A stretch of 64,000 nucleotides of DNA from Bacteroidota bacterium. Lineage in GTDB: Bacteria; Bacteroidota; Bacteroidia; Palsa-965. Position numbers and translations under genes: made by a program. Of the stretch, positions 1,122-57,512 are shown piece after piece. The DNA lies in contig JADBYT010000019.1 of NCBI GenBank assembly GCA_020402865.1, positions 68,622 through 132,621 on the forward strand. Direction: 5' to 3'. Under the pieces are notes generated by a model. It was not told where the DNA came from. It saw nothing but the letters and a program-made list of their open reading frames with translations, and did no database searches. Positions within the stretch are counted from its first letter, which is position 1. Every line of letters starts with the position of its first letter.

Positions 1122-2408
1122 ATGTCAATAGACCGCACTTTGGCTCCGGCCTTTCAGCCTGTAAAAGACGTGCATTTGCTGCAGGCTTCAGAAGTAAAAC
1201 TCAGCAACGGCATTCCGGTGTTCCGTCTCGATGCGGGCACACAGGAAGTAGTGAAAATTGAATGGCAGTTTGCCGCCGGCATCCGCATGCAGCCGCAGCC
1301 GCTGGTAGCTACCGCCGTAAACGATATGCTCGACGAAGGCATAGCCGGCCGCAGCGCCGAGGAACTGGCCGAAGAGCTTGATTACTACGGCGCGTTCATC
1401 GAGTCGGAAACCACGCACGATGTGGCTTCGTTTACGCTGTACAGCCTCAACCGGCATTTGCCCGCGGTGCTGCCGCTGGTGCGTGCCATGCTGTTTGAGC
1501 CGGTGTTTCCGGCGGCCGAGTTTGACGTGTACCTCAGCAACCGCCGCCAGAAATTTGTGGTGGATGCCGCCAAAGTGGGCAACATGGCCCGCCGCGGCTT
1601 TGCCGAATTTTTGTTCGGCTCCGCGCATCCCTACGGCGCCAAAGCCGAACTCGCAGATTTCGACCGCCTCGGCCGTGAGCAGCTGGTGAACTTTCACCGC
1701 AGCCACTACACGCCCGCAGCCTGCACCATTATTGCCGCCGGCAAAGTAACCGATGCCGTAACCGGCGAACTGGAAAAAGCCTTTGGCGCCCTGCCCGTGG
1801 GCGAAAAACCGCAGCACACCCTCATAATGCCCGCGCCGGCCACACATGCCGCACGCATACACACCCTCGAAAAGCCCGACGCCCTGCAATCGGCCATCCG
1901 CACCGGCTGCATGCTGTTTAATAAAACCCATGCCGACTACCACGCCATGCAGGTGCTCAACACCGTGCTGGGCGGCTATTTCGGCTCGCGCCTCATGGCC
2001 AATATCCGCGAGGACAAAGGCTATACCTACGGCATCGGCTCCGGCATCGTATCCATGCAGCACGCCGGCTACTTTGTCATTTCTACCGAAGTAGGGGTTG
2101 ACGTAACCAACGCCACCCTGCACGAAATCCGCACCGAAATAGACAAACTCCGTCAGCACGAAATTCCGGCCGATGAGCTTGAGCTGGTGCGCAACTACAT
2201 GACCGGCGTGTTCCTGCGCAGCACCGACGGCCCCTTCGCGCTGGCCGACCGCCTCAAAGGCCTGCTCGGCTACGAGCTTGGTTACGACTACTACTCGCGC
2301 TTCCTGCACACCGTGCAAAGCATCACCGCGCCGCAGCTGCAGCAGCTGGCGCAGCGTTACCTCAATCCTGAGCAAATGACGGAAGTGGTGGCGGGCATGC
2401 GGAAATAA
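1122..2408 (+). CDS. M16 family peptidase, second (probably non-catalytic partner) subunit
   Basis: 428-aa ORF 15 nt after the first M16 gene. It lacks HxxEH but has the typical M16 C-terminal-domain length and composition; paired M16 genes are a common arrangement. Confidence 0.75.
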   Translation: MSIDRTLAPAFQPVKDVHLLQASEVKLSNGIPVFRLDAGTQEVVKIEWQFAAGIRMQPQPLVATAVNDMLDEGIAGRSAEELAEELDYYGAFIESETTHDVASFTLYSLNRHLPAVLPLVRAMLFEPVFPAAEFDVYLSNRRQKFVVDAAKVGNMARRGFAEFLFGSAHPYGAKAELADFDRLGREQLVNFHRSHYTPAACTIIAAGKVTDAVTGELEKAFGALPVGEKPQHTLIMPAPATHAARIHTLEKPDALQSAIRTGCMLFNKTHADYHAMQVLNTVLGGYFGSRLMANIREDKGYTYGIGSGIVSMQHAGYFVISTEVGVDVTNATLHEIRTEIDKLRQHEIPADELELVRNYMTGVFLRSTDGPFALADRLKGLLGYELGYDYYSRFLHTVQSITAPQLQQLAQRYLNPEQMTEVVAGMRK

Positions 2409-2411
2409 ATT

Positions 2412-2461
2412 AAGGACGTGTGCATATAGTTTGCATCACGTCCTTATGAACTGTTTTTTTC
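2412..2461 (+). terminator. putative intrinsic terminator after the M16 peptidase pair
   Basis: Inverted repeat aaggacgtg...cacgtcctt followed a few nt later by a T7 run. It lies between convergent genes. Confidence 0.4.
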
Positions 2462-2564
2462 CTAGATGCGATTCGTTGATATAATATTGTTCTTATAGTT
2501 AATAAGTCTTTTGTTAATTTATCAGATCACAATCTTAACGTGTATTAATGGTATTGAATAAATA

Positions 2565-3863
2565 CTATATTTTACTTAAAGGGGCAAATAAAGTACTCAG
2601 ACTTGAAAAATTTATTGCTTTTGATAATGTTACGACATATTGTGGCATTGGAGATTTCAATGTATTCGTAATTTCAGCTTGAATTGTAATGCCAGTAGAT
2701 GCTTCAGTAATCCATGCTCTGCCAGAAAAGAAATAATCATTAGTGGACTTGTATGTTTGATTGTTAATTTTACTTGATTCTGGAGTATAAATTGTAGTCC
2801 AACCGGCAGCAAAATAGATAGATACTGTTATGTTTTTGTTTTGATGATTAATATACAAACCAAGCCCCTTGTTGAATTTAAACTGATTAGATTTAGAGTT
2901 AAAACTTCTTGGGTAATTTAATATTTGCGGAAATTGTGAGGATACTGTTCTTGTTTGCGAATACGCAGAGTCGCCAATAAGATATTCTGTGTTTTTTGCA
3001 ATTCTTTGCCAGATAAATTCTGCTGATGGCGAGAAATATAGTTGAACTAAGTTAGAAGAAGAACTCAAGGATTTTATCTTAAATTTTTTGTGATTAATGT
3101 TTATCAGTGGTGAAAAATATGCACCAATATTTTCTGATGAAAATTTAGTGATGGCATCTGTTTGCTCATAAGAAAAAACCGATGTAGTGTCATTTATTTT
3201 TACAGCTTGATAAGGACGAATTACGTCTTTGAGCGTATCAACTGATGTAATATTTCTATTTCCATATAAGTTTAAAAAGAAGCCACTTTTAAAACCATTT
3301 TCATGGGAGTTAGGGACAAAAATATTTGTAGCAAAAAATAAATTTTTCGCTTGTATCCCATCTACCAGATCAAAATTTGTTCCTACATACGCCAAGTAGT
3401 TATATTGATTTATGGACTCACTTTTTTTTGTTGTGATAGATGTCATTCTATCTTTTGATAGATTAAGAGAAGAGATGTTTTTTTTGTTCTTGAATACTAC
3501 TAAATCTATTAAAAGTGTTCTTTGCTTGTCAGGAATACTGTCAGGAAAAATTGTTACAAGAAAAAGTATGGTGTCCCCGTTGTTTTTTGAAGTAAGTGTT
3601 TGTTTGTTGTGAAGAATTTCATAGTCTGTTGCAGGCAGAGAACTATTATTGATATTAGCTACGATGTCAACTTCTAGTGTATCTCCAATTGGAATACTGT
3701 CAATATAGTATTTGCAGATTACTTCGGTCGATTTGAGTGGGGCTTTAGTGATCGCTATCTCCTTATTAATCATCGATATCATAAATTTAGAGTCAGATTG
3801 TGCAGATGAGTTAATTGATAGAAAAACACCAGCAGCAATTAGGAGTTTTGTCAGTAGTTTCAT
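2565..3863 (-). CDS. hypothetical secreted/outer-membrane protein, compositionally atypical (AT-rich)
   Basis: 432-aa ORF with an N-terminal signal peptide (MKLLTKLLIAAGVFLSINSSAQ). Its GC is far below the neighbouring genes; the protein is Ser/Asn/Thr-rich with no recognisable catalytic motif. Confidence 0.6.
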   Translation of the reverse strand: MKLLTKLLIAAGVFLSINSSAQSDSKFMISMINKEIAITKAPLKSTEVICKYYIDSIPIGDTLEVDIVANINNSSLPATDYEILHNKQTLTSKNNGDTILFLVTIFPDSIPDKQRTLLIDLVVFKNKKNISSLNLSKDRMTSITTKKSESINQYNYLAYVGTNFDLVDGIQAKNLFFATNIFVPNSHENGFKSGFFLNLYGNRNITSVDTLKDVIRPYQAVKINDTTSVFSYEQTDAITKFSSENIGAYFSPLININHKKFKIKSLSSSSNLVQLYFSPSAEFIWQRIAKNTEYLIGDSAYSQTRTVSSQFPQILNYPRSFNSKSNQFKFNKGLGLYINHQNKNITVSIYFAAGWTTIYTPESSKINNQTYKSTNDYFFSGRAWITEASTGITIQAEITNTLKSPMPQYVVTLSKAINFSSLSTLFAPLSKI

Positions 3864-4008
3864 GAGTTTAGAGGTTTGGTTTCATGAAATTTATGTAATT
3901 TTAATGTGCAAGTTTATTTTTGGGGTATATTTTATTAAATCATTGATTAATTTCCCTAAATCATAGGATTTAACACTCCTTAGTACACAAGCCGCGCAAA
4001 GGCTTGCT

Positions 4009-9529: not shown

Positions 9530-9850
9530 TGCTAAATGTATAATGCAGCCGGACTTTGTCCGGCTGTTTTTTTTGGGGTGTGTGTAATAATGCAGCCGGC
9601 TGTTTTTTTTGGGGGGAATGTTTGGAGTGGTTTTTTGTGTGTTGTAATGCAGCCGGGTGTTTTTTTTGGGGTTAGGCTGTTTTTTTTGGGGGGGAAGTGT
9701 TTGGAGTGGTTTTGTGGTGTTGTAATGCAATTGGGTGTTTTTTGGGGTTCGGCTGTTTTTGGGGTTGGAGTGTTTGGTGTGGTTTTGTGGTGTAGTAATT
9801 CAGCCGGGTGTTTTTTTGGGGGAGTGATGTAATTCTTTAAGTGGGGTGTT
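9530..9850. repeat. degenerate tandem array (4-5 units, ~58-76 bp) of terminator-like GC-stem/T-run units
   Basis: Reiterated units gtaatgcagccgg(c/g)tgttttttttgggg...gtttggagtggttttgtgtgtt at about 9540, 9588, 9646, 9722 and 9797. ORFs 9536..9832(+) and 9532..9900(-) are artefacts of the repeat. Confidence 0.7.
9546..9574 (+). terminator. Rho-independent terminator of guaB
   Basis: Perfect hairpin cagccgga-ctttg-tccggctg followed by T8, 38 nt after the guaB stop. Confidence 0.7.
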
Positions 9851-10048
9851 TGGGGACGCGTATTTTGGGTAGTTGTCACCGGGATATAGGTTTTACGCAT
9901 AATGCGTATATTAAATAGTTGATAATGTAATGTGTTTATAAATAATGAGTTAATGTATTTTGTAGTTAGTTGTGTTTTTGCGGGGTAATTGCGTATATTT
10001 AGGAGTTGCCTGCAACCCTAACAGATCCTAATAGCAAAGACAGAATTT

Positions 10049-11284
10049 ATGTTTGGATATAGAAATACAATTAAGGCTTTCTATGAAATAGACAGCTACA
10101 CTTACAGACAAGAAAAATCAAATAGCATTGTAAGTGAGATAACAAATAAAGGCAAAGAATACATTTTGGGGGTTGATGAAAATGAATTTATAGAGTATTT
10201 AATTGAAAAATATAGTATTGAACCATTAACGGTTGACAGGGAAAATCCAAGTATCAACGAACCAACTGTTTCAAAAGAATGGGTAGAAGACAGAATGTGG
10301 AGAGAAAAATATCAAACTGATGTTTATACTTTTACAATTAGTTACAAATTTTCAGGTTCGTCTGAATTATTTAAGGTTAGACCTGACACTTGGACAATGA
10401 CTACAACTGAAATTTCAATAAATGAACAAAACTCAACAGTATCGTTTAGTTTTAAACTTTATAGAAAAGACCCAGGAGAATTTAATAATGCTAAAAGAGA
10501 TTTTGAAAACAGAGCCTTTGCAAATCTTCAAAATGTAAATAACTTAGTTAGTAGTTGGAATAATTCAATTAAAGGACTTGCAACTTCAACATTTCAAGAA
10601 CACAAAAGAAAATTTCAGCAAGAGAATGATTTTTTTGCTGCAATCAATGTAAAAGTAAATACAAATACTTCATCAGTATTTACTGCACCAACAATAAAGA
10701 AAAAAGTTATACCACAACCAACAGTAAGTCCAAAAAAAGAATTTTCATCAGAGCCAATGATGAGCAAAGAAATGTATGATGACATCTTAAAAGTGATCTA
10801 CGATTCTGGAAAGAATATGGAGAAGAAACCAACTTTATATCAAAACAAAGACGAAGAGGGTTTAAGAGACCAATTTTTGTTCGTATTAGAAACAAGATAT
10901 GATGGAACTACTGCAAGTGGTGAAACATTTAATAGAAGTGGTAAAACAGATATACTTTTGAAATACGCTAATGATGGAAGTAATTTATTTGTAGCAGAAT
11001 GTAAGTTTTGGCACGGAATAAACGAATTTCAAAAAGCAATTTCACAACTATTTGACAGATACTTAACTTGGAGAGACTCAAAAACAGCCTTGATAATGTT
11101 TGTGAAAAATAAAGACTTTTCAAATGTAATTGAGACAGTAAAAAAAGAAATTAACGAACATCCTTACTTTTCTAAATTAGTCGGACATCGTGGTGAGACT
11201 TCTTTTAGTTACTTGTTTCATTTACCACAAGACAATCAAAAACCAGTACAATTAGAAATAATGCTTTTTCATTATGACAAATAA
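10049..11284 (+). CDS. hypothetical protein with an unknown N-terminal domain and a C-terminal PD-(D/E)xK-like nuclease motif; candidate defence effector
   Basis: 411-aa ORF in the AT-rich island. Its C-terminal region (FVLETR ... GKTDILLKYANDGSNLFVAECKFWHG) matches the E...D...ExK spacing of the restriction-endonuclease-like fold. Confidence 0.7.
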   Translation: MFGYRNTIKAFYEIDSYTYRQEKSNSIVSEITNKGKEYILGVDENEFIEYLIEKYSIEPLTVDRENPSINEPTVSKEWVEDRMWREKYQTDVYTFTISYKFSGSSELFKVRPDTWTMTTTEISINEQNSTVSFSFKLYRKDPGEFNNAKRDFENRAFANLQNVNNLVSSWNNSIKGLATSTFQEHKRKFQQENDFFAAINVKVNTNTSSVFTAPTIKKKVIPQPTVSPKKEFSSEPMMSKEMYDDILKVIYDSGKNMEKKPTLYQNKDEEGLRDQFLFVLETRYDGTTASGETFNRSGKTDILLKYANDGSNLFVAECKFWHGINEFQKAISQLFDRYLTWRDSKTALIMFVKNKDFSNVIETVKKEINEHPYFSKLVGHRGETSFSYLFHLPQDNQKPVQLEIMLFHYDK

Positions 11285-11488
11285 ATAGGGCAGCAGGCAA
11301 CATCGGTTTGGCAATATGGCGGCTGAAGTGCTTCTATGAAACATTTGTGCAAGGTTCAACAGCATTAATTCTATTGAACTTTATTGCTAAAAATCCGCCA
11401 CATCGCCAAGCCGTTTCCCGTTAGCAACAATTATATGACAAACCATGATATCAGTAAAATTGGTTTAAGCCCAAAAAAATGCAACAAA

Positions 11489-14158
11489 ATGAAAGAGGAA
11501 ATATATATTTCATATGCATGGATTAAATCCCCTACAGGCAATAAGGGGCACTCAACAATTGTTAACTCTATTGAGAAAAAATTGAAAGGTCATTTCAGCG
11601 TTAAAATTGATAAAAAAGATTTAAAGTACAAGGGAAACATAAAGGAATTTGAACAACGACTGGGACGAAATGGAAAAATTGTTATTGTCATTAGTGATAA
11701 GTTTCTTAAGTCAAAACATTGCATGCACGAAGTGCAATGTATAGTTGAGAAAGGCAATGTATATGAACGGATATTTCCAGTTGTGTTGGATGATGCTGAC
11801 ATTTATAACTCAAAAGGGATTCTTAAGTACGCTAAGTATTGGGAGAAGGAAAAGGAAAAATTAGAAAAGGAGTTGAAAAAAACTAAATCGCAGGCCAATC
11901 TTATTCCAGTACAAAACGACATCAATTTATTTTCTAAGTACCGTGAAATTATTGCTGGTTTTATTGCCATACTCAACAATATGAATACGCTAACTCCAGA
12001 AATTCATGAAGGGGCAAAATTTGAACAATTAATTGAAGCACTGTATGGAAAAAATCCACGACCTGACCATAAGCAGGAAAAGGATTACGCCAAGCGAATC
12101 TCAGAGACCAAAAAACTATTTGATAGTGCAATAAAGATTATAGAAAAGGAAATCAAAGAGAGAAAAATTAAGGCTGAGGAAATTCTTGGAAAAATAAGGC
12201 ACTTTCAAAATCAATGCACCCAACAAACATTTCAAATTGCTGTAATGGCAATTTTAAAATCGGGGAAATCCACCTTTTTAAATTCGTTACTCGGCAATGA
12301 GTTTTTGCCCGTTTCGAATGTTGCGGCAACTTCTGTCCCCGTTAGGATTAATCATTCAAGACATAAAGACGGGTATCTTACTTTTGGGAAAAGCAAAATT
12401 GATGGTGTAGAAAAGATTAGGAAGCAAATCGAATTGACCAATGAAGAAAAGAGAGATAAGGGAATGCAAGAGGTTCAATTTAATTTGTTTGCTTCTTTCA
12501 GGGCACTTGAGGATAAGGAAATGACTGATATTAAGTTTGAAATATTAGACACACCTGGCTTTGGTGAAGCACTTACTGAAATTACAATTGGAAAAACAAT
12601 TGACGAATCCAATTTGGAGCTTATTGATAAAATCAGCGCAATAATCTATTTGCTGGATTACACCAAATTGAAAACAACAGACGAGGATAAGGTGTTTGCA
12701 AAGTTAACTGAGATGCGAAGTGACATTCTGGATAAAATATCAGACAGGTTGTTTTTTATAATTAACAAAATTGATGAGGAAAACAGGAATAGTTTGCCAC
12801 CAGATAAAGTAGTTGATTATGTATTTGACATCGTTAAAACGAAAATGCCGAATGTTTTAAAGCAGCACATTTTTACAATATCCGCTAACCGTGCATTATT
12901 ATCTAGATTAATTCTTTTTGAGAATGCGACCAGTGAAGCGAAAAAGGACTTTGGTAGAATGGCCTTTGGATTTAAAGCAAACCAAAAGGATGAATCGGAA
13001 TACAAAGAAGTAGCAAGAGAAATATTAGCCGCCAGTAACATTCTTGAAGTTGAAAGCAGAATTCTGAATCACATTTTCGATAATCGAAGTAGGATATTTG
13101 TCGAAGGTCTGCAGGACAGCTTGAAACATTTAATGAAGGAATTCAAGAATAAATTTATTATCACTGCTGAAGGAGTTCTTAGCAGAACAATTGAAGAAAT
13201 TACTGACCTTGAATCAAAAATTGAGGCAGCAAAAAAAAAACAACAAAGTATCCAGGACGAAGCGGATAAATTTGAAACGGAAATCAAGGAATGGAATGAA
13301 ATAGAATTTCGAAACTTTGAAAAAAGCATCACAGATCAAATTGACTCAGCTTTCAATATTGAAAAGGTTGAAGAAAAGCAATCGTTTTGGGGTAGAATGA
13401 TGCCAAATTGGGTAAAGAGAGTTGGAAATAAATTGCGCGAGGTACAAGACTCCGTTGATTCCAGTTCGAAATATGATGTTGAGGAATCAATTCGTGCGCT
13501 TAACAAGGAAATTAATGAGGAGTTAATTAATTCATTCGGAATATTCAGACGGGAATTAGAGAATAAATTAGCCTCAAAGCAGAAAGCACTTTTTGAATCG
13601 CTGAAGCAAACGATAAATACATTAGCAAAAGAGTTCGAGAGCACATTAAAAAAAGGACTTAAAGTGGAATTTGAACAAACAGAGGTTCGCTTAGACGAGC
13701 CAGATTTTGACAGAACCCTAATAAAGGCAGATGAGCTCATTGATAGATTTGTACAAAGCGACTGGAAAGGAGTTCGTGTTGCAAAAAAAGAAAAGGTTTA
13801 CAACGAAAGAAAGAATTGTTATCTGGGGGGATACGACACTTTTACTACTTATGAAACTCAATACTTTGAGGAGAATAGAATAAGCAAGACCTCCTTAGAA
13901 TTGTTTTGGAAAAAAGTAATTGATGACAGGCATCAAAATGCGAAGGGAGTGACGAATAAGTTACTTGAAAACAGTATAAAAGCTCAGATTAAGAACGCAA
14001 GGAAAAGTTTCGACACATACGTGGGAGATTACCTTTTAACTATCCAAGAACAAAAGGCTCGATTGACGAATAGCGACAAATCGGAAATTGCAAATCAGAT
14101 AGCACACTTAAGACAATTAAATGAGACGGTATCGAGTATTATTCAAGATTTGAAATAG
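11489..14158 (+). CDS. TIR domain + dynamin-like GTPase + coiled-coil fusion protein; candidate defence sensor/effector
   Basis: The ORF runs 11384..14158, and the likely ATG is 11489 (MKEEIYISYAW). The N-terminal segment has a TIR signature (IYISYAW...VIVISDKFLKSKHCMHEV, containing the conserved Glu). A P-loop GTPase follows with G1 AILKSGKSTFLNSLLG, G3 ILDTPGFGE and G4 INKIDEE, a dynamin_N-like pattern. The remainder is a long heptad-rich, K/E-rich tail. Confidence 0.8.
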   Translation: MKEEIYISYAWIKSPTGNKGHSTIVNSIEKKLKGHFSVKIDKKDLKYKGNIKEFEQRLGRNGKIVIVISDKFLKSKHCMHEVQCIVEKGNVYERIFPVVLDDADIYNSKGILKYAKYWEKEKEKLEKELKKTKSQANLIPVQNDINLFSKYREIIAGFIAILNNMNTLTPEIHEGAKFEQLIEALYGKNPRPDHKQEKDYAKRISETKKLFDSAIKIIEKEIKERKIKAEEILGKIRHFQNQCTQQTFQIAVMAILKSGKSTFLNSLLGNEFLPVSNVAATSVPVRINHSRHKDGYLTFGKSKIDGVEKIRKQIELTNEEKRDKGMQEVQFNLFASFRALEDKEMTDIKFEILDTPGFGEALTEITIGKTIDESNLELIDKISAIIYLLDYTKLKTTDEDKVFAKLTEMRSDILDKISDRLFFIINKIDEENRNSLPPDKVVDYVFDIVKTKMPNVLKQHIFTISANRALLSRLILFENATSEAKKDFGRMAFGFKANQKDESEYKEVAREILAASNILEVESRILNHIFDNRSRIFVEGLQDSLKHLMKEFKNKFIITAEGVLSRTIEEITDLESKIEAAKKKQQSIQDEADKFETEIKEWNEIEFRNFEKSITDQIDSAFNIEKVEEKQSFWGRMMPNWVKRVGNKLREVQDSVDSSSKYDVEESIRALNKEINEELINSFGIFRRELENKLASKQKALFESLKQTINTLAKEFESTLKKGLKVEFEQTEVRLDEPDFDRTLIKADELIDRFVQSDWKGVRVAKKEKVYNERKNCYLGGYDTFTTYETQYFEENRISKTSLELFWKKVIDDRHQNAKGVTNKLLENSIKAQIKNARKSFDTYVGDYLLTIQEQKARLTNSDKSEIANQIAHLRQLNETVSSIIQDLK

Positions 14159-14388
14159 CTATTCAGTAAAATAGTGAAGTTTAGTAAACTTTGGGAAAAT
14201 TATAAAACAACTATTGCTAACAGGCGTTTGGCTCAATGGTGGGTACAGTGGTTAAATGAAGCTTTTGCTTCTTTCTAAGTTTCTGCTGCTTTGACTGTGA
14301 AGTGCTTCGAAATACTGCACGAACGCCAAACGGCAAAACCTTACTACTAATTCTAAATCATATCACATCGACAACAAATAGAAAGAAA

Positions 14389-15021
14389 ATGATCGAACCT
14401 GAAATACAATATAAAGTACCAAATTACTGCCCGACTTGTAATTCGATAGTTGAGACTGGAATTCTTTTCAGTTATGCTTTGAATATTATATACACAGACG
14501 AATTAGAAAACCAAGGGACAGCCGTAATATTAGGAAAGTGCTTGAATTGCAACAGTCCGTTTTTATCACAAGAAGATTTTCAAAATATTGAAGAGCATTC
14601 TTGGGTAAATGACAAATTTCAACTTTACCCATTGACAGACAACTTCGCATTAAAAAACGCACCTGATATTGTTATTAATCCATACAAAGAAGCCCAGAAA
14701 TGTTTTAGGGCTCAAGCATATGAAGCTTGTGTAATAATGTGCCGAAAAGGAATTGAAGCGATATGCACTGACAAAGGCGAGACAAAGGGCAACCTCGCAG
14801 ACAAATTAAAAAAACTAAAAGACAACCATATTTTAGAAGAAACATTTTATAACTGGTCAAACGAATTGCGACTTATTGGAAATGACGGAGCCCACTCACA
14901 CGACAAAATAATTAACAAGCAAGATGCGAGAGACGCCATTGACTTTTTTGACGCTTTGATAACATATTTATATCATTTGGTTGATCAATACAAAAAATTA
15001 AAAACTCGTAGAACTAAGTAA
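14389..15021 (+). CDS. Zn-ribbon + DUF4145-like domain protein
   Basis: The ORF runs 14302..15021, and the likely start is MIEPEIQY at 14389. It has a CxxC...CxNC zinc ribbon (CPTCNS...CLNCNS). The C-terminal block AQAYEACVIMCRKGIEAIC...LRLIGNDGAHSHD...ARDAIDFFDALITYLY resembles DUF4145, a domain found on type I restriction endonuclease (HsdR) C-termini and abortive-infection/defence proteins. Confidence 0.65.
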   Translation: MIEPEIQYKVPNYCPTCNSIVETGILFSYALNIIYTDELENQGTAVILGKCLNCNSPFLSQEDFQNIEEHSWVNDKFQLYPLTDNFALKNAPDIVINPYKEAQKCFRAQAYEACVIMCRKGIEAICTDKGETKGNLADKLKKLKDNHILEETFYNWSNELRLIGNDGAHSHDKIINKQDARDAIDFFDALITYLYHLVDQYKKLKTRRTK

Positions 15022-15062
15022 TGACAAGTGGAGTAAAGAATATTATTTATTTCAGTGTCTAT

Positions 15063-15869
15063 CTATAGAGTATCAAATTTATTAGCATAGTAATGAGCTT
15101 TTTCACGGTCTTTAGGTTCGCTATTCCCATAGAAGTTACTATGAGAAAATAGTGTTTGTGTAAGGTAATTTTTAAGCCAAAGATATTTTGCATAGTTTTG
15201 AGTTCCACTGTATAATTCATTTTTAATATTAGTATATATATATTCTAAATCATCGATATTTTTAAGGGCTATTCGTTCTGCAAATGAAATAAAAATTGCA
15301 TCATTATTTATGATCGTAAAGTCGGTGGGATATTGATATATTAAACGATTTGGTCTATCAACTGCGCCGGGGTAAATGCTATCATAGTTATATTGTAATA
15401 TAAAATATTCTTTGGTTTGGTGGGAAGGATTACTATCATATGATGCAATGATTCTTGGGTCAATAATTACTCTAGGATATTTTTCCTGTGATTCTAAAAT
15501 ATAAGCATCACTAAGTCCATTTCCTACAACAATATTTAGTTCAGTATCAAAATGAATGTCACCTAAAGTTACTGCTCCTCTAATCCAAATATTTTCCCTT
15601 GCACAGTCGCATTGTATTGTTTGAACTGCAGTTAATAGCTCTCTTAATCCTTCTATGCTTAACTCACTGGCAAGAATAACTGAATCACTCACTAATTGAC
15701 CGCGAACATTTTCTTTACTCGATTTTACTTTTTTTAGAGTTTTAGTAATTACTTCGAAATACTTATCAAACCTAAGGTCTGTATCTTTTTTGCGTAACAT
15801 TTCTTTAAATCCTAAGACATCTAAAAATGCAACATATTGCTTCTCTTTTAGATTTTTTGACATTGACAT
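15063..15869 (-). CDS. class III nucleotidyl cyclase-like (palm-domain) protein; possible signal-generating cyclase
   Basis: 268-aa ORF convergent with the DUF4145 gene. YVAFLDVLGFKEML (first metal Asp), QLVSDSVILASE (second Asp), IWIRGAVTLGDIHFD and VVGNGLSDAYILES resemble the conserved blocks of class III adenylyl/guanylyl (and Pycsar pyrimidine) cyclases. Confidence 0.6.
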   Translation of the reverse strand: MSMSKNLKEKQYVAFLDVLGFKEMLRKKDTDLRFDKYFEVITKTLKKVKSSKENVRGQLVSDSVILASELSIEGLRELLTAVQTIQCDCARENIWIRGAVTLGDIHFDTELNIVVGNGLSDAYILESQEKYPRVIIDPRIIASYDSNPSHQTKEYFILQYNYDSIYPGAVDRPNRLIYQYPTDFTIINNDAIFISFAERIALKNIDDLEYIYTNIKNELYSGTQNYAKYLWLKNYLTQTLFSHSNFYGNSEPKDREKAHYYANKFDTL

Positions 15870-16062
15870 TGTTTTCTGTTTTTGTATGATTGCGTCTTTC
15901 TGGTGTTTATTTATATATTGTAAATATATTAAGTGTTTTATTTAGATCAAGATTTGTGCTAATATTTATATTAAAGGAGTAATAAATTGTCATTTTTAGG
16001 CAGATCTCTTTCTGATCTAGCTTCATGGTGAATTTAATGTATATGACACTAACATACCCCCT

Positions 16063-16103
16063 CAAAAAAAACACCTGCCGGCATTGCTGCACAGCAGGTG
16101 TTT
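16063..16103 (-). terminator. intrinsic terminator of the 1530-aa cargo gene
   Basis: On the minus strand, hairpin aacacctgc...gcaggtgtt followed by T8 (plus strand: ctcaaaaaaaacacctgccggcattgctgcacagcaggtgtt), 20 nt past the stop. Confidence 0.55.
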
Positions 16104-51935: not shown

Positions 51936-53618
51936 TTACTTTACTTTAGCACCCTCCATTTTCTGTCCGCCCTGAGAAAATGTAAGACTGATAATTGTTC
52001 CATCCGTATGTAAGTTAAACACCACCTGCGCTCCCATTTCCTTAATTATAAAACGCTGCTCGGCTAAGGCAAAAAGCTCAACAGGCGGCTGCTCCGGGAA
52101 CTTTGCAAAAAGGTGTTCGTTCTCAATTTCCACTTCAATTTGTAAACCGGGTTGCAGTTCATATACCCCTGTATAGCTGACAAGTGTTTGCAACGGTAAT
52201 TGTATGGTTTCCATTTCAGCCATTGGTTTTTTATCCGTTTCAATGCCCCTGCTTTTTTCAATCCTGTCGGTATAAAGCACCTGCTTTTTACCATTTTTTG
52301 AGGAGAAGGTGTATGTGGCTAAACGGTTTTCAAATCTGAATTCTGTTGCCGACAATGGTTCGAGTTTTATCGGGCGTCCACCCTCGCGCATACTGTAAAG
52401 CGATCCGTTTTCATACGAGATGAAGCGTACCACATCCTCAAACTGATAGGCTCCTACCCATTTCTTCAACTCTTTTTCCGAAATTGTAACCGGAGCTTTT
52501 TCAATAAGTGATTTGCCTAAAAGAGCAGAAACGGCTTTTATATTGTATGCTTCCGGCCCTTTCCCGTCATCGCGGTTGGTTAATACAATGGAATAAATAT
52601 TACGTTCAGGAACATAAATGCCGGATGTGGTAAAACCATTCATTCCGCCGGTATGTTCAAGTGTAGCTGTTCCGGCTATTTCATTTATTGCCCAGCCATA
52701 TCCGTAATTTGACAACTTACCGCTTGTTAAAGTGTGGTTTGTAAATGCCAGTTTCTGACTTTGTGCTGAAATAAGTGTGTGATGATGAATGGCGCTGTGC
52801 CATAAAAACATATCGTCAATGGTTGACATTAATGAACCGGCTGCATAAGGAATAGTCGGACTCATGTACTCCGGATTTTCGTAATTGCCTTCATAGAGCT
52901 GATAGCCATTGGCCATGCGGGGAATTACTTTGTAATTATCGGCATAATACGAGTTTTTCATTCCGAGTTTATCAAAGATGTTTTTCTGCACAAAGTCACC
53001 GTAGCTCATGCCAGAAAGTTTTTCAATTATATAACCCAAAAGCACGTAGCCCGAATTGCTGTAGGCATACCTTTCGCCGGGAGTAAACTCAAGGGGAAGA
53101 TTTTTAAACGAACTGATGATTTCCTCAGGACGCATGTCGAGCCGTGTTTTTGCTCTGAATTCGGGCAAATTGGTATAGCTTGTTATGCCGGAAGTATGAT
53201 TCAGCAAATGATGCAGCGTAATCTCGTTTCCTCGTGGGTAATCAGCAATGTATTTCGACAGCTGATCGTTCAGGCTTAATTTGCCTTGTTCCATCAACAT
53301 CAATATGCTAACGCTGGTAAATTGTTTGGTTATAGAAGCCAGCTGCAGCACATTTTCGGGCTTCATAGGCACATTCAATGCCAGGTTTGCCATACCAAAA
53401 GCTTTTCGGTAAATAATCTTGTCGCCCTGAGCAATCAGCACAGTGGCACCCGGCGAATTGGCCGGGTATGCCTGATTGAAAATGGCATCAATTTCAGCTT
53501 CTGTTTGTTGTGTGGAAACTACAACTGATCCGGGATCTGCTTTCGATGATACTGGCTTTGATTGCCCGAAAAACAGGTGGGTAGATAACAGTGCTAAACA
53601 GGTGAATGTGAATTTCAT
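51936..53618 (-). CDS. serine hydrolase (class C beta-lactamase/penicillin-binding-protein family)
   Basis: 560 aa with a signal peptide. The S-x-x-K active-site motif is present (LASITKQFTSV) in the expected N-terminal position, followed by a C-terminal extension domain. Confidence 0.8.
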   Translation of the reverse strand: MKFTFTCLALLSTHLFFGQSKPVSSKADPGSVVVSTQQTEAEIDAIFNQAYPANSPGATVLIAQGDKIIYRKAFGMANLALNVPMKPENVLQLASITKQFTSVSILMLMEQGKLSLNDQLSKYIADYPRGNEITLHHLLNHTSGITSYTNLPEFRAKTRLDMRPEEIISSFKNLPLEFTPGERYAYSNSGYVLLGYIIEKLSGMSYGDFVQKNIFDKLGMKNSYYADNYKVIPRMANGYQLYEGNYENPEYMSPTIPYAAGSLMSTIDDMFLWHSAIHHHTLISAQSQKLAFTNHTLTSGKLSNYGYGWAINEIAGTATLEHTGGMNGFTTSGIYVPERNIYSIVLTNRDDGKGPEAYNIKAVSALLGKSLIEKAPVTISEKELKKWVGAYQFEDVVRFISYENGSLYSMREGGRPIKLEPLSATEFRFENRLATYTFSSKNGKKQVLYTDRIEKSRGIETDKKPMAEMETIQLPLQTLVSYTGVYELQPGLQIEVEIENEHLFAKFPEQPPVELFALAEQRFIIKEMGAQVVFNLHTDGTIISLTFSQGGQKMEGAKVK

Positions 53619-53733
53619 TTTGTGTGAGTATTATAATTGACTTTGTTCGAAATTGGTTTTGTTTATGGCAATAAATAGCCAGCTCACTGAGTGAGTAATT
53701 TTATTTTGTAAAAAGAATTGAACTAGGAGCGCC

Positions 53734-54171
53734 TTATTTTCTTATGTAGAAGAAATACGCTAAATAACTTAGGCCAAGACTAAAAGCCATTATCGCCAAA
53801 GAATGAATATTGATCGGTGCAGTCAGATAAGTAATGGTCAAACCTATACCGAGGCCACAAAAAAGAATAGCCAGTTTAATTGCATTATTCTTCTTCTCCT
53901 GAATATTTTTAGTTAATGAGTAAGCCGCTAATTGCTCAGTCATTCCCCGTTCAATAAGTTTGTTTTTTAAACGGTATTCTAAAAAATAGTTAACCAGTGT
54001 GACAAGCATAAGAACCAGAAATGACATAAACAGAATGGGGAATATCATTTCAACAACAGGTTGTGTGACAAAGGTATTTCCTGCCGGTTCATTAATCGGA
54101 TTGTTTTGCGCGGATACCAGAACAGGCATCTGCAGCATGAGTAAGCACACCAATATTTTTTTCATCTCCAT
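53734..54171 (-). CDS. hypothetical membrane protein
   Basis: 145 aa with 3-4 TM segments, immediately downstream of the anti-sigma gene. Confidence 0.45.
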   Translation of the reverse strand: MEMKKILVCLLMLQMPVLVSAQNNPINEPAGNTFVTQPVVEMIFPILFMSFLVLMLVTLVNYFLEYRLKNKLIERGMTEQLAAYSLTKNIQEKKNNAIKLAILFCGLGIGLTITYLTAPINIHSLAIMAFSLGLSYLAYFFYIRK

Positions 54172-54205
54172 ATTAATTTTGAATTATACTCAATCAGACA
54201 ACCTT

Positions 54206-54673
54206 TTATGACATCGGTTGCAAATTTGTATTAAATAAATTTCCCTCTTTTGTTTTATACTGCCGAATAATATCGGTCAGGATAATCAGTAAAACTATCA
54301 GGGCAGTTCCTGTTACCAGAAGTGTTGTAACTATTGAACCGGCGCATATATAATCCAGCACTTGAGCGATATAAGGAATTGAAAAAGAGGAAACGATAAT
54401 CAGCATAACTGCAAAAAATCCCCAAAAAAATAATTCCTGTTTTCCCCTTTTCTTCTTCTCAAAAAGCATAACTGCATGCATTGCCAGATCAGAAACATCG
54501 AATGAAAACGTTTCTGTTTCTACTTCCTGCAGCTGATTAATCAGTGCGTGATATTCATCACGCTTTTTCCTGCAAATGAAGCACCCGGCAAGATGTGCGT
54601 CATAAGTATTATCCTGAATCTCATTCAAAATAATAGCTTGAATCGTTTCGTCAGTTAAATGGTTGTTATTCAT
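54206..54673 (-). CDS. putative anti-sigma factor (zinc-finger, membrane-anchored)
   Basis: 155 aa with an HLAGCFICRKK (H-x3-C-x2-C) motif and a C-terminal TM region. It overlaps the ECF sigma gene stop by 4 nt. Confidence 0.5.
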   Translation of the reverse strand: MNNNHLTDETIQAIILNEIQDNTYDAHLAGCFICRKKRDEYHALINQLQEVETETFSFDVSDLAMHAVMLFEKKKRGKQELFFWGFFAVMLIIVSSFSIPYIAQVLDYICAGSIVTTLLVTGTALIVLLIILTDIIRQYKTKEGNLFNTNLQPMS

Positions 54674-55242
54674 AACTGCGCGTTTTTATAGTGGTGATTG
54701 ATATTGTCTTTCAGAATTTTTCTTGCCCTGTACAAATAGCTTTTTACTGTTCCTTCCGGTAGATTGGTAATCTCCGCAATTTCCTTGTTGGGTAATTCTT
54801 CTATGTGGTAAAGCGTGATTAACGTTTTATACAAAGGAGGGAGACGGCCGATTGCTGCATGCAGAATTTCTATTGACTCTGCATGAATTGTTTCAACTTC
54901 CGGGTTTGGGATTTCGATAAATCGGTTCTCCAGTTTATCTTCAATACCAACAACTTGTATTTTCTTTTTTTGCAAGTAATTTACAGTGGTATTGTAAGCA
55001 ATATTCGCAATCCAGGTTGATAATTTTGATTTGAATTGAAAAGAAGCCAGATTTTGATAAACCTTTAAATAAATATCCTGCACAAGATCTTTCTGGTCAT
55101 CTTCATTTACAGTCATTTTACGTACAATCTGAGCAACCAGTTTTTCCGTGTTTTTTATTACAACAGCAAAGCCCTGAACATTACCATTCAGGATGTTGGT
55201 CACAATAGCCTTGTCAGAAATGTAGCTACTATCGTTGCTCAT
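54670..55242 (-). CDS. RNA polymerase ECF-type sigma-70 factor
   Basis: 190 aa with a region 2 (DLVQDIYLKVYQNL) and a region 4 HTH (LYHIEELPNKEIAEITNLPEGTVKSYLYRARKILK). Confidence 0.85.
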   Translation of the reverse strand: MSNDSSYISDKAIVTNILNGNVQGFAVVIKNTEKLVAQIVRKMTVNEDDQKDLVQDIYLKVYQNLASFQFKSKLSTWIANIAYNTTVNYLQKKKIQVVGIEDKLENRFIEIPNPEVETIHAESIEILHAAIGRLPPLYKTLITLYHIEELPNKEIAEITNLPEGTVKSYLYRARKILKDNINHHYKNAQL

Positions 55243-55623
55243 GTTTTAATAATAGACAGGCAACTTTCAATCCGGTTGCAAAAAAAATGATTTATTTTTT
55301 GATGGGTAAATTGAAGGTGATTTTCTAAATATATACAATTGGCTGAATCATCTAATTTTACCCTGATCTTTGGTAACTTGCTTTTAAAGAGCCTATCCTT
55401 TGGATAGAATTAGAAAGTAGCGGCCACCGATTGTTGTGTCCGTTCAATTTCGTTTTCTTTTTAAGTCTCCGTTGCAGACTCCGTGTTTATGATAGGTATA
55501 AATTTAAAGACGAATTCCCGACAGTCTTTAACAGGCTGTCAGGAATTCGTCTGTTGAAATGATCGTTCTGATATTCAAAAATTAGCAGAACCGATGTTTG
55601 TCAAATTTTGGGTTATCAATCGT

Positions 55624-56043
55624 TTATGTGTTAACCCGCGGCCATTTCCAGGCATAATTGATAATCATACAAAGAAGAATAACTTGTATTACAGCGCCAA
55701 TCACCATGTGTATCCAGGCTTCTCCGACCAGATTAAACAAGATAAAGGGGATATTTACCGCGGCAATACAGATATTTGTCCAACGATTTACTTTTGCAGG
55801 GAGTACACCGGAAAGAGCAATCATCAGTGCCGGAGCGCCAATTAAGCCAAGTGCGATTAAAAGAAAGCCTTGCGAAATATCAAATACAAACACCTTGCCT
55901 TTCAGAATATCGTCGATTGTTCCCGGCATGTATAAATGGAAATAATCCAGATAAATGATGAAGAACATTACGCTTGTCCATAACAATGCAAGCTTCGTTT
56001 TGATGTTAATTTTCATGTCTTCCAGCTCAACTTTAGCATTCAT
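55624..56043 (-). CDS. hypothetical membrane protein
   Basis: 139-aa ORF with four predicted TM helices. Confidence 0.45.
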   Translation of the reverse strand: MNAKVELEDMKINIKTKLALLWTSVMFFIIYLDYFHLYMPGTIDDILKGKVFVFDISQGFLLIALGLIGAPALMIALSGVLPAKVNRWTNICIAAVNIPFILFNLVGEAWIHMVIGAVIQVILLCMIINYAWKWPRVNT

Positions 56044-56060
56044 GTGTGGTGAGTTTGTCG

Positions 56061-56690
56061 TTAGAAATTGAATCCAATATTGAGCCCGGGTTCAGGAAAA
56101 ATAATTTTGGGCCATTTGTCATCGAGTTGTTTAAATCCGTCGGGTAAGGGTGTGTGATAGGCACGATGAGTCATGCAAACCGATGGCTGGAAGAAAAACC
56201 GGTCTTTAAATAGTTTGATGTGATAGCCCACGCGGTATGAATTGAAAATCTGAAAACCATCTTTAATTTTCTTCCCGTTGTCATTCACAAAAATCTGCCA
56301 GGTAGGCATTACGTCAAGCTGCGCATATAAGCCTTTCCAAAAAAAACGGGTATAAGAGAATGTGGCGCCAATCTCACGTATATAGCCCGGAAATTTTTCT
56401 TCGGGTTTTTTGTACGCATCATTTAGAAACGGATGAATACCATTCGGCCATGCATATTTCCATGTTTTGGGCGCTATTCCAATTACATCTTTTCCAGTAA
56501 GCCGGTAACCAATATTGAGCTGAACGAAATTGGGCGGATTTTCCTTGTCTAAATTGCCGAACAACATAAATAATGAAGTCCCCACAAACCAACGTCTGTA
56601 TGTGCTGTCTGTTTCAGAATACTGCGCTTTAAGATGGAGCGAGCTTGTTATCATTACGATAAAAGCAATAAATAAAACTTTCTTTTGCAT
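56061..56690 (-). CDS. hypothetical secreted/outer-membrane protein (tandem paralogue 1)
   Basis: 209 aa with a signal peptide. The start MQKKVLFIAF...LKAQYSETDSTYRRWFVGTS is nearly identical to the neighbouring gene, and the protein ends in an aromatic residue (NIGFNF), as beta-barrels do. Confidence 0.6.
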   Translation of the reverse strand: MQKKVLFIAFIVMITSSLHLKAQYSETDSTYRRWFVGTSLFMLFGNLDKENPPNFVQLNIGYRLTGKDVIGIAPKTWKYAWPNGIHPFLNDAYKKPEEKFPGYIREIGATFSYTRFFWKGLYAQLDVMPTWQIFVNDNGKKIKDGFQIFNSYRVGYHIKLFKDRFFFQPSVCMTHRAYHTPLPDGFKQLDDKWPKIIFPEPGLNIGFNF

Positions 56691-56806
56691 AGTTTTTACT
56701 AATTAGAATTGATAATGCAAAAGTAGATTGGCGCCCGTGCTTAACTCCTACACTTAAGTTAAGAAATCGGCCTTGCCGGTATTGGTGTTTGTATATTTAT
56801 CAGCCT

Positions 56807-57430
56807 CTAAAAGTTAAATCCAAAGTCCAAACCGGGCTGAATAAAGTAATTGGGCCACTTGTTTTCCACAGCTTTAAAAGATTCAGGCACATTGGTTCGC
56901 AGCGGCCAATAGCTGCAACCGATAGCGGGCTCAAAAAAGAACCGGTTTTTAAAAAACTTAAATTGATATCCGAGATAAAAGTCCAGATATAAGGTGTATC
57001 CGTTTCCAATCTTTTTATCCGTTGCGTCCACATATTTTTCAAACGCATTTAGTGCATACAACGATGTATAAACACCTTTCCACCAAAATCGCTGATAGCC
57101 TAATTGTGGTGCAATTATGCGCGCATGACCAGGATAGTTCAGGCCGGGGGCATCAAATGAAGGGCCGAAAGGAATCCCAATCGGCCAGCTGTATTTTGAT
57201 CGTTTGAACCTAAAAGACACCACATCGTGAGGAGTTATCCGGTACCCCACATTCAACTGGATATACTCCGGTTTGTTGGGGTCATCCGGGATAAAATTTC
57301 CTAACATCAGCAGCGAACTTCCCACAAACCAGCGCCGGTACGTGCTGTCTGCCTCAGCATGTTGTGCCTTGAGATTAAGGCTGCATGCAATGAGTAAGAG
57401 GCTGGCAAGGAAAAAGACTTTCTTTTGCAT
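56807..57430 (-). CDS. hypothetical secreted/outer-membrane protein (tandem paralogue 2)
   Basis: 207 aa starting MQKKVFFLAS...LKAQHAEADSTYRRWFVGSS and ending LDFGFNF. It is a paralogue of 56061..56690. Confidence 0.6.
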   Translation of the reverse strand: MQKKVFFLASLLLIACSLNLKAQHAEADSTYRRWFVGSSLLMLGNFIPDDPNKPEYIQLNVGYRITPHDVVSFRFKRSKYSWPIGIPFGPSFDAPGLNYPGHARIIAPQLGYQRFWWKGVYTSLYALNAFEKYVDATDKKIGNGYTLYLDFYLGYQFKFFKNRFFFEPAIGCSYWPLRTNVPESFKAVENKWPNYFIQPGLDFGFNF

Positions 57431-57512
57431 TTTCGTTTTCTTTTAGTGAAACGATGCAGCAAAAGTAGATTGACAAAAGTGCATAGCTACAGCACTTAAG
57501 TTAAGAACGCGC

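Follow-up and report, generated by a model that had tools for sequence, protein, structure and literature searches.

The window (the whole stretch of 64,000 nucleotides analysed here) contains an island of four genes that differs strongly in composition from the sequences on either side.

9900..16100, no strand: low-GC island of four genes, GC 0.33 against 0.545 and 0.564 in the flanks (host about 55%)
10049..11284, + strand: PDC-S54 candidate defence gene (PADLOC E=2.6e-111), adjoining the TIR-dynamin gene
11489..14158, + strand: TIR-dynamin gene, 889 aa plus stop, gene GC 0.347, with TIR_2 and Dynamin_N above gathering cut-off
14302/14389..15021, + strand: gene for a DUF4145 protein (Pfam E=5.6e-19)
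15063..15869, - strand: gene for a 268-aa protein, function not assigned

The island looks foreign and has the appearance of a small defence island. Its edges are marked by terminator-like repeats only, Pfam finds no integrase among its four ORFs, and there is no tRNA within the window. Both the DUF4145 gene and the 268-aa gene have matches among the phage families of PHROGs, in which no family matches the TIR-dynamin protein. A scan for sigma-70 promoters returned 25 sites where 25.7 were expected, an uninformative result of the kind anticipated for a Bacteroidota-type genome.

The ORF at 11384..14158 (+ strand, 924 aa) proposed in the sequence-only reading is indeed present in the window, but its start has been moved. 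The TTG at 11384 with which it was listed is an in-frame extension upstream of ATG 11489, which is M36 of that ORF. The ATG is taken as the true start because MKEE[VI][FY]ISY is the N-terminus in 20/20 full-length homologs and because exactly the same 889-aa product is recorded in an independent assembly. The motifs quoted earlier for this protein are all present and their coordinates have been verified. Numbered from M36, the product is divided as follows.

11489..11803, + strand: TIR core, aa 1-105, with the betaA strand YISYAW, the SDKFLKSKHCMHEV helix and the candidate catalytic Glu E81
11504-11521, + strand: YISYAW motif (TIR betaA strand), coordinates verified
11693-11734, + strand: SDKFLKSKHCMHEV motif (TIR helix), with the codon of Glu E81 at 11729-11731
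11804..12058, + strand: helical extension of the TIR module, aa 106-190, helices 108-131, 139-164 and 170-186
11981-11992, + strand: conserved MNTL..E.H motif in the helical extension of the TIR module
12059..12223, + strand: K/R-rich helical linker, aa 191-245, predicted helices 195-225 and 230-245
12224..12916, + strand: dynamin-type large GTPase domain, aa 246-476 (Dynamin_N, BDLP profile match, fold matches)
12245-12274, + strand: G1 MAILKSGKST
within 12323-12337, + strand: G2 Thr281
12548-12559, + strand: G3 DTPG
12764-12775, + strand: G4 NKID
12878-12889, + strand: G5 ISAN
12917..13750, + strand: helical stalk, first part, aa 477-754, BDLP/dynamin-type long antiparallel helices
13751..13882, + strand: beta-hairpin at the stalk tip, aa 755-798 (44 residues), strands 755-772 and 781-798 in the model
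13883..14155, + strand: helical stalk, C-terminal part, aa 799-889, with invariant Trp807

The N-terminal TIR domain that had been read from motifs is upheld by Pfam TIR_2 (PF13676), with a match over residues 40-160 of the 924-aa ORF (E=3.3e-9, 37.7 bits, cut-off 28), and by fold searches, in which the flavodoxin-like alpha/beta TIR fold is matched to SARM1, RPS4, TIR-STING, Cat1, TIR-SAVED, SPARTA and AbTir. These are enzymes turned on by oligomerisation. A search of PDB sequences with the TIR region as a single sequence gave no match and only profile and fold searches succeeded; the TIR-module profile matches the PDB sequences of Roq1, RPV1, L6, RUN1 and AbTir, with a best E of 1.9e-8, the closest being the plant TNL TIRs Roq1, RPV1 and L6. 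In the profile alignment with these PDB sequences, E81 shares its column with the Glu of the WCLxEL motif (WCLEEL/WCLDEL/WCLMEL) that the plant TIR NADases Roq1, RPV1/RUN1 and L6 carry. No other residue occurs at this position in any of the 21 family members or of 31 TIR-module sequences drawn from a wide range of phyla, so that the description of E81 as a catalytic-type Glu stands. In place of the Trp of the WxxxE-type motif there is an invariant His ahead of E81. From these alignments the TIR domain is predicted to be of the enzymatic NADase type, acting by NAD+ destruction.

MyD88, MAL and the TLRs are also among the TIR fold and profile matches, and many animal TIRs, these included, are purely adaptors. 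This would suit an alternative in which the protein is a housekeeping or stress-response dynamin for membrane repair or fusion and the TIR is a non-enzymatic protein-protein interaction module. The invariance of the Glu at the catalytic position, in the family and in the 31 TIR-module sequences, argues against it.

The TIR core is followed by a helical segment, aa 106-245, that separates it from the GTPase. The first part of this segment, in which W118 is invariant and N166 nearly so, moves with this TIR subfamily into other proteins, many proteins of other architectures matching profile positions 1 to ~190 at ~200 bits. Relatives that have only the core begin to match at positions ~190-240, that is at the long helix of the linker, which is probably part of a dynamin-type neck.

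In the case of the GTPase, the match to Dynamin_N (PF00350) spans residues 285-462 of the 924-aa ORF (E=2.7e-15, 57.2 bits, cut-off 27), so that both of the profiles named beforehand for this protein are above their Pfam gathering cut-offs. A profile match also connects this domain to Nostoc BDLP (2j68; E=2.2e-6), and the P-loops are near-identical, KSGKSTFLNSLLG in the window protein and KRGKSTFLNALIG in BDLP. The dynamin-family P-loop GTPase recognised earlier from its G1, G3 and G4 motifs is thus confirmed by profile and by dynamin folds. Comparison of 21 homologs, which share 44-67% identity, finds G1 KSGKS, G2 T281, G3 DxxG, G4 NxxD and G5 SA invariant across the sequences. To judge from this conservation, both enzymatic parts of the protein, TIR and GTPase, look functional.

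The remainder had been described as a K/E-rich heptad coiled-coil tail of about 600 residues. A long helical tail is there; it is shorter, at ~410 aa, as the GTPase ends at about aa 476 in M36 numbering, and it is not a generic coiled coil. The model and Foldseek instead show a dynamin/BDLP-type helical stalk carrying a 44-residue beta-hairpin. The modelled helices of aa 482-720 include one of ~100 residues, and long helices extend over 482-754 and 799-888. With the full-length model, the best Foldseek match is BDLP (E=2e-12), followed by SynDLP, dynamin-1, IniA, mitofusin and MxB. The alignments to BDLP, SynDLP and dynamin-1 cover 780-860 columns with E=2e-12 to 1e-10 and have low TM-scores of 0.2-0.3, because the stalk conformations differ. 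The confidence of the full-length model is modest (pLDDT 75, pTM 0.51), which makes its relative placement of domains unreliable. At the level of fold the structure prediction upholds both the TIR and the dynamin calls, and the modelled scaffold is truly of the dynamin superfamily in its fold, stalk included. The hairpin is polar rather than hydrophobic and is the least conserved segment, with a majority fraction of 0.53 against 0.75 for the GTPase, and a Cys in its loop (Cys777) is invariant. This variability, and the analogy with Mx, make aa 755-798 a candidate recognition element.

The top structural matches, BDLP, SynDLP, IniA, mitofusin and a DynA-type pair, remodel membranes, and in this they favour the housekeeping dynamin with an adaptor TIR. 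Nostoc BDLP, B. subtilis DynA, SynDLP, IniA and mitofusin have a large GTPase and a helical neck/trunk stalk in common with the window protein. They are, however, membrane-remodelling proteins, whereas no hydrophobic paddle or TM segment is present anywhere in the window protein, where the highest Kyte-Doolittle 19-residue mean is 1.15, at the P-loop strand; this absence argues against a housekeeping membrane-remodelling dynamin. The window protein also adds an N-terminal TIR module, a long stalk-tip beta-hairpin, a patchy spread and a defence island setting. Indeed, the full-length TIR-dynamin architecture is found in only 4/185,579 species genomes, a rarity and extreme patchiness which, with the low-GC island and the defence genes that surround homologs in other genomes, would not be expected of a housekeeping function. 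Nor would the inactivation of the gene by a frameshift in the K/R-rich linker, as seen in one relative of 94% identity. Taken together, a housekeeping role is very improbable.

The neighbourhoods of the homologs are rich in defence genes, a qualitative statement that rests on 85 neighbours in 10 loci. Among these neighbours are three type IIG restriction-modification enzymes, MADS components, SIR2+HerA, a CBASS cyclase with a 4TM effector, and DrmC-like and PbeA-like proteins. Two of the ten contexts (L010 and L011) have no obvious defence neighbours; in L011 panB and a pseudouridine synthase gene flank the TIR-dynamin gene, with no other gene between them. There is no neighbour common to the 10 distinct homolog loci and the Pfam-annotated neighbourhoods differ in every locus, while PDC-S54, the DUF4145 protein and orf268 are absent by tblastn from 12 homolog loci. 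A multi-gene system was therefore rejected, there being no conserved partner gene across the homolog loci, and the TIR-dynamin gene is a single-gene module. The census of the architecture and its neighbourhood that had been suggested from the sequence thus gives a rare protein in defence-rich surroundings with no fixed partner. The earlier suggestion of a role in immunity gains support from the low-GC island, from the adjoining PDC-S54 gene and from these neighbourhoods.

In another locus, L003, the homolog is flanked by IS1595 transposases. These transposases, the foreign composition and repeat-bounded edges of the island, and the matches of the DUF4145 and 268-aa neighbours to phage protein families could be accommodated if the gene served a mobile element as toxin or addiction module, or were an interbacterial weapon, with TIR NADase toxicity stabilising the island or hitting competitors. 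No small adjacent antitoxin or immunity gene is conserved across the loci, however, and Pfam finds no secretion signal or toxin-delivery domain. Moreover, anti-phage systems typically have such an NTPase scaffold with a swappable effector and typically lie near restriction-modification, CBASS and SIR2-HerA genes, and this alternative is very unlikely.

The GTPase and stalk core is not confined to proteins with this TIR. It occurs fused to other N-terminal TIR_2 domains (P0086, P0104, P0107, P0116, P0120), to C-terminal TIR_2 (P0035, P0059, P0064), to C-terminal PNP_UDP_1 (P0065, P0074), to CHAT (P0101, P0066), to SAVED-CHAT (P0125), and to EAD1 and EAD11 adaptors (P0097, P0023, P0040, P0041). 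In three loci (L018, L019, L023) a patatin gene is in an operon with the core. One core is therefore associated with at least six kinds of fused or operonic effector and adaptor modules. That other immune effectors are carried on related dynamin cores suggests that these dynamins are probably switchable immune scaffolds. By its domain combinations the core family would fit among the NTPase-scaffold immune proteins with swappable effectors, which is a functional class and not a sequence family. As the SAVED-CHAT fusion P0125 already has a dedicated sensor, the dynamin core may not be the sensor in every case, and might instead act as an effector in its own right.

TIR NADases and dynamin-like GTPases are each already known in bacterial immunity, and no description of their coupling in one protein was found. 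PADLOC has no relevant model match for the TIR-dynamin protein. No publication describing a TIR-dynamin fusion was recovered by a literature search part of which was swamped by papers on TIRF microscopy and endocytosis, and dynamin does not appear in the main text of the Aravind-laboratory conflict-system surveys that define the EAD domains. The remark in the sequence-only reading that no such fusion has been described still holds for the PADLOC models and the literature searched.

Eleos is a two-gene LeoA/LeoBC dynamin-like anti-phage system, in which defence requires the P-loop (Millman et al. 2022, bioRxiv 10.1101/2022.05.11.491447). Like the window protein, it consists of bacterial dynamin-superfamily GTPases in defence islands, and some distant relatives of the core match LeoA/LeoBC weakly, at 38-50 bits. 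Eleos is, however, a pair of dynamin-like genes without a fused enzymatic effector, whereas the window has a single gene with a TIR. Membership of Eleos was rejected, since PADLOC gives no LeoA/LeoBC match at E<=1 and there is one dynamin-like gene only, in the window island and in every homolog locus. In Thoeris (ThsA/ThsB) a TIR protein, ThsB, is paired with a ThsA-type effector (SIR2/SLOG or Macro-TM); the window protein has no ThsB match, and neither its island nor the homolog loci contain a gene resembling ThsA.

The TIR-STAND proteins (TIR-fused Avs/bNACHT/NB-ARC and the plant TNL resistosomes) follow the same logic, joining an N-terminal TIR effector to a scaffold whose oligomerisation depends on NTP and which has a variable region for recognition. 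In the window protein, however, the scaffold is a TRAFAC-class dynamin GTPase with a helical stalk and not a STAND ATPase with repeat sensors, and its assembly would be a GTP-driven filament or ring in place of a closed resistosome. The same TIR fold and catalytic Glu are found in TIR-STING, TIR-SAVED, Cat1, SPARTA TIR-APAZ, AbTir and SpbK. In filament-activated TIR effectors the NADase is turned on when a partner domain clusters the TIRs; they are clustered through binding of a cyclic nucleotide or a guide-target duplex, whereas in the window protein this would be through a GTP-driven dynamin polymer. The eukaryotic antiviral Mx and GBP proteins belong to the dynamin superfamily as well; they are soluble, serve in immunity and polymerise around structures of the pathogen. 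The specificity of Mx is set by a variable stalk-tip loop; at its own stalk tip the window protein has a hairpin that is likewise variable, and MxB is among its fold matches. Mx and GBP proteins lack an enzymatic death effector such as a TIR, and what they share with the window protein goes no further than architecture and logic, with no specific orthology shown.

On balance, the TIR-dynamin is probably a stand-alone, single-protein anti-phage abortive-infection system, in which the GTPase and stalk would be sensor, switch and scaffold and the TIR would be the effector. The fact that the TIR module is also carried, at ~40-50% identity, by NB-ARC, NACHT and Roc-COR proteins, which are NTP-driven oligomerising switches too, counts in favour of this reading. 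In the uninfected cell the protein would be a soluble low-order oligomer with its TIR domains apart and inactive. An infection cue would then be engaged, most likely at the variable stalk-tip beta-hairpin, by analogy with loop L4 of Mx. The GTP-bound G domains would dimerise and the stalks would polymerise in dynamin fashion, the stalk being the part that drives polymerisation in the dynamin superfamily. This would bring the TIR domains head-to-tail to form composite NADase active sites around Glu81, and NAD+ would be degraded, such that the infected cell would no longer support phage replication. GTP hydrolysis may take the polymer apart, which would provide both a reset and a threshold against self-activation.

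Some TIR enzymes produce signalling molecules instead of depleting NAD+, ThsB of Thoeris being an example of a TIR that generates a messenger. The TIR of the window protein might likewise, when phage is sensed, make a cyclic-ADPR-type or other NAD-derived messenger, with the dynamin part or an unlinked protein as the effector, for example by membrane remodelling or sealing. By Pfam the window protein contains no known domain for binding a messenger, be it SLOG, Macro, SAVED or STING; no partner gene is conserved across the loci, and the protein has no membrane-binding paddle or TM segment. PNP, CHAT and patatin, which take the place of the TIR on the core, are moreover terminal effectors and do not generate signals. 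Signal generation by the TIR is unlikely.

If the switching of the TIR by dynamin polymerisation is borne out, this would be the first TIR NADase turned on by a dynamin polymer, and a third assembly engine beside STAND/NLR oligomerisation and the filaments formed on cyclic nucleotides or guide-target duplexes. It would also offer a tractable bacterial model for pathogen recognition by Mx/GBP-like dynamins. It is also possible, though the balance is tipped slightly against it, that dynamin-like GTPases constitute a hitherto unrecognised class of prokaryotic immune scaffold similar to STAND/NLR proteins, in which the hypervariable stalk-tip hairpin of a soluble core would recognise a phage structure and a GTP-driven polymer would activate the attached effector, be it TIR, PNP, CHAT protease, patatin or an effector recruited through EAD. 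Such a class would be the bacterial equivalent of the 'coat the pathogen' immunity of Mx and GBP, to which it might also be related by descent. The wider core family would be a ready set for studying how a scaffold passes on activation, and its members indicate further uncatalogued systems, for example dynamin-X-patatin, dynamin-PNP and SAVED-CHAT-dynamin.

The open reading frame reported in the sequence-only reading, 11384..14158 on the + strand (924 aa from a TTG), is present in the window. The true start of the gene, here called TIR-dynamin, is the ATG at 11489, where MKEE[VI][FY]ISY is found in 20/20 full-length homologs, and the 889-aa product from this ATG is recorded identically in an independent public assembly. 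The two proposed domains are both borne out by profile, Pfam TIR_2 matching with E=3.3e-9 (37.7 bits, cut-off 28) and Dynamin_N with E=2.7e-15 (57.2 bits, cut-off 27), and each of the quoted motifs was found at its verified coordinates. The AlphaFold2 model of the whole protein (pLDDT 75, pTM 0.51) is divided as follows, with residues numbered from the ATG.

Residues 1-105: alpha/beta TIR core
Residues 106-245: helices joining the TIR and the GTPase
Residues 246-476: GTPase domain
Residues 477-889: all-helical stalk
Residues 755-798: long beta-hairpin interrupting the stalk

The best Foldseek match in the PDB is BDLP (E=2e-12), with SynDLP, dynamin-1, IniA, mitofusin 1 and 2, the Campylobacter dynamin pair, and MxB also matched. 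Nostoc BDLP is likewise the nearest solved protein by sequence, with an almost identical P-loop. Since the Foldseek alignments span ~800 columns, the tail, which had been read as a coiled coil of ~600 aa, is a dynamin-type stalk and not a generic coiled coil. With the start and the length and nature of the tail corrected, the original interpretation is supported. There is no paddle or transmembrane segment, as no 19-residue stretch of the protein is hydrophobic enough. BDLP, DynA, and mitofusin share the fold, but their membrane-binding element, which was tested for, is missing from TIR-dynamin; that TIR-dynamin is a housekeeping dynamin of membranes whose TIR serves as an adaptor is the least probable of the readings considered.

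The catalytic motifs are intact. A TIR-only profile, built from the TIR modules (TIR plus helical extension) of 31 proteins from many phyla, matches the authentic PDB sequences of Roq1, RPV1, L6, RUN1, and AbTir. In this alignment the glutamate suggested to be of catalytic type, the invariant Glu81 (seHCmyEl), falls on the WCLxEL glutamate, which is catalytic in plant TIR NADases; the fold matches include the RUN1 E100A-NAD structure. Both enzymatic halves look functional, because the TIR signature residues and all of the GTPase motifs (G1 KSGKS, G2 Thr281, G3 DxxG, G4 NxxD, and G5 SA) are invariant in a 21-sequence family alignment. The extension of ~85 aa after the TIR (aa 106-190, window 11804-12058) is a constant companion of this TIR subfamily. 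It carries a conserved MNTL..E.H motif (N166 nearly invariant) for which solved TIR structures offer no counterpart, and it may couple the TIR to diverse NTPase scaffolds.

Exhaustive searching demonstrates that TIR-dynamin consists of two units, each of which moves independently of the other. The first, the TIR and its extension (profile positions 1 to ~190), is found at ~200 bits in many other proteins, including NB-ARC-TPR, NACHT-HEAT, and Roc-COR-LRR proteins. The second, the GTPase and stalk core (positions ~190-890), is present in ~85 of the best-scoring 150 clusters, where most core proteins stand alone at 670-730 aa and many have added domains, as in these relatives.

N-terminal, different TIR_2 domains: P0086, P0104, P0107, P0116, P0120
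C-terminal, TIR_2: P0035, P0059, P0064
C-terminal, PNP_UDP_1: P0065, P0074
Either end, CHAT: P0101, P0066
N-terminal, SAVED-CHAT: P0125
N-terminal, EAD1 adaptor: P0097
N-terminal, EAD11 adaptor: P0023, P0040, P0041

The N-terminal SAVED and CHAT module of P0125 (1170 aa) matches a CBASS peptidase-effector model (E=3e-46), which by sequence implies a cyclic-oligonucleotide sensor-protease coupled to a dynamin scaffold. In one Bacteroidetes MAG and two Binatia MAGs, downstream of a core-only gene and on its strand, there are first uncharacterised ORFs (a single one of 302-303 aa in L018 and L023; two, of 95 and 181 aa, in L019) and next a gene for a patatin-like phospholipase (L018:6986-10858, L019:6995-10957, L023:6917-10941). 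In PADLOC these loci have only weak LeoBC or phospholipase-effector similarity, and they look like a candidate uncatalogued dynamin-X-patatin operon. In known defence systems, TIR, PNP, CHAT, and patatin all act as terminal effectors. The swapping of attached effectors on the same core speaks most strongly for a core that regulates and assembles and a TIR that is the effector; the converse, in which the TIR makes a signal and the dynamin or an unlinked protein is the effector, is rather unlikely.

TIR NADases switch on when their domains come into ordered head-to-tail contact, as in SARM1, plant TNL resistosomes, TIR-STING, TIR-SAVED, Cat1, SPARTA, and AbTir, and in the dynamin superfamily stalks mediate polymerisation and GTP-bound G domains mediate dimerisation. 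For TIR-dynamin we infer, as the most economical and the probable function, that an infection cue would bring about GTP-dependent assembly, that this would cluster the TIR domains, and that clustered TIRs would destroy NAD+ and so abort the infection, with GTP hydrolysis resetting the system. The best candidate for the sensor, speculatively and on the model of Mx loop L4, would be the variable, polar hairpin at the stalk tip. This hairpin is the least conserved region of the protein (majority fraction 0.53 vs 0.75 for the GTPase).

The specific family is rare. A word-indexed search found ~20 full-length homologs (44-67% identity, 890-919 aa), mostly in Bacteroidota metagenome bins, and a pattern-seeded scan taking one genome per species found the full-length protein in only 4 of 185,579, each of them a Bacteroidota MAG, a count that is a lower bound because the scan depends on two peptide patterns. 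Among 1.84 billion cluster representatives searched exhaustively, one only spans the full length of the profile. The closest relative (94% identity; L007:9246-11851, also L016; GCA_031378885.1) has a 1-nt frameshift in the linker that leaves a 235-aa TIR ORF and a 616-aa dynamin ORF; the split is present in two assembly records, one an NCBI MAG and the other a Logan assembly made from a sequencing run, and reflects either pseudogene formation or a sequencing error in a homopolymer. One full-length homolog, P0020, carries the label Nitrosopumilaceae archaeon, but its contig is just 3,988 bp long; misbinning is a likelier explanation than true presence in an archaeon.

Across 10 distinct loci there is no conserved neighbour gene, and one genome has TIR-dynamin on its own, flanked by panB and a pseudouridine synthase gene. 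PADLOC identified, among 85 ORFs neighbouring the homologs, three type IIG restriction-modification enzymes, MADS components, SIR2+HerA, a CBASS cyclase with a 4TM effector, PDC-S54 (a candidate single-gene defence family), and DrmC-like and PbeA-like proteins. Taken together, the occurrence of homologs, the lack of a conserved neighbour, the solitary locus, and the defence genes nearby indicate a self-sufficient, single-gene module resident in defence islands.

The TIR-dynamin fusion is real and recurrent, and apparently uncatalogued. As the sequence-only reading had it, no such fusion was found described, in a literature search to which subscription journals were mostly closed; the main text of two surveys defining EAD adaptors does not mention dynamin, PADLOC v2.0 contains no model of the fusion, and NCBI names the homologs only 'dynamin family protein'. 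A TIR effector carried by an NTPase scaffold is a kind already known, and so is defence by dynamin-like proteins. TIR-STAND proteins follow a like logic, but with a different NTPase class. Thoeris was rejected as the identity of TIR-dynamin, as was Eleos, the LeoA/LeoBC dynamin-like anti-phage system, there being one dynamin gene only and no LeoA or LeoBC model match; some distant core relatives have weak Leo similarity. The fusion is open to direct testing.

In the window, TIR-dynamin is one of four genes in an island of ~6.2 kb (roughly 9900-16100) with a GC of 33%, between flanking genes of 54.5% and 56.4%.

10049..11284: PDC-S54 gene directly upstream of TIR-dynamin, full-length PADLOC match (E=2.6e-111)
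11489..14158 (+): TIR-dynamin
14302-15021: DUF4145 protein matching phrog_1305, 'DNA binding protein' (E=3e-31)
15063-15869: 268-aa protein of unknown function matching phage family phrog_23933 (E=3e-24)

The last two genes are absent beside other TIR-dynamin genes. The left edge, just after a guaB-like gene, is a tandem array (9543-9830) in which a 36-nt terminator-like unit, TGTGTGTAATAATGCAGCCGGCTGTTTTTTTTGGGG, recurs in 5-6 degenerate copies with a period of ~73, and the right edge has an inverted copy at 16052-16093 (73-79% complementary). The unit is found nowhere else in the window, and these edge repeats could be the sign of a site of repeated insertion. The window contains no tRNA, and none of the four island ORFs is an integrase. 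A toxin or addiction function serving a mobile element is highly improbable. The C-terminal half of the PDC-S54 gene also matches phrog_9664, a phage family of unknown function. Two further patches of low GC, ~2000-4000 and ~52000-58000 (0.37-0.41 against a background of ~0.52), the latter holding several small ORFs (139-209 aa) in a row on the minus strand, may be additional islands.
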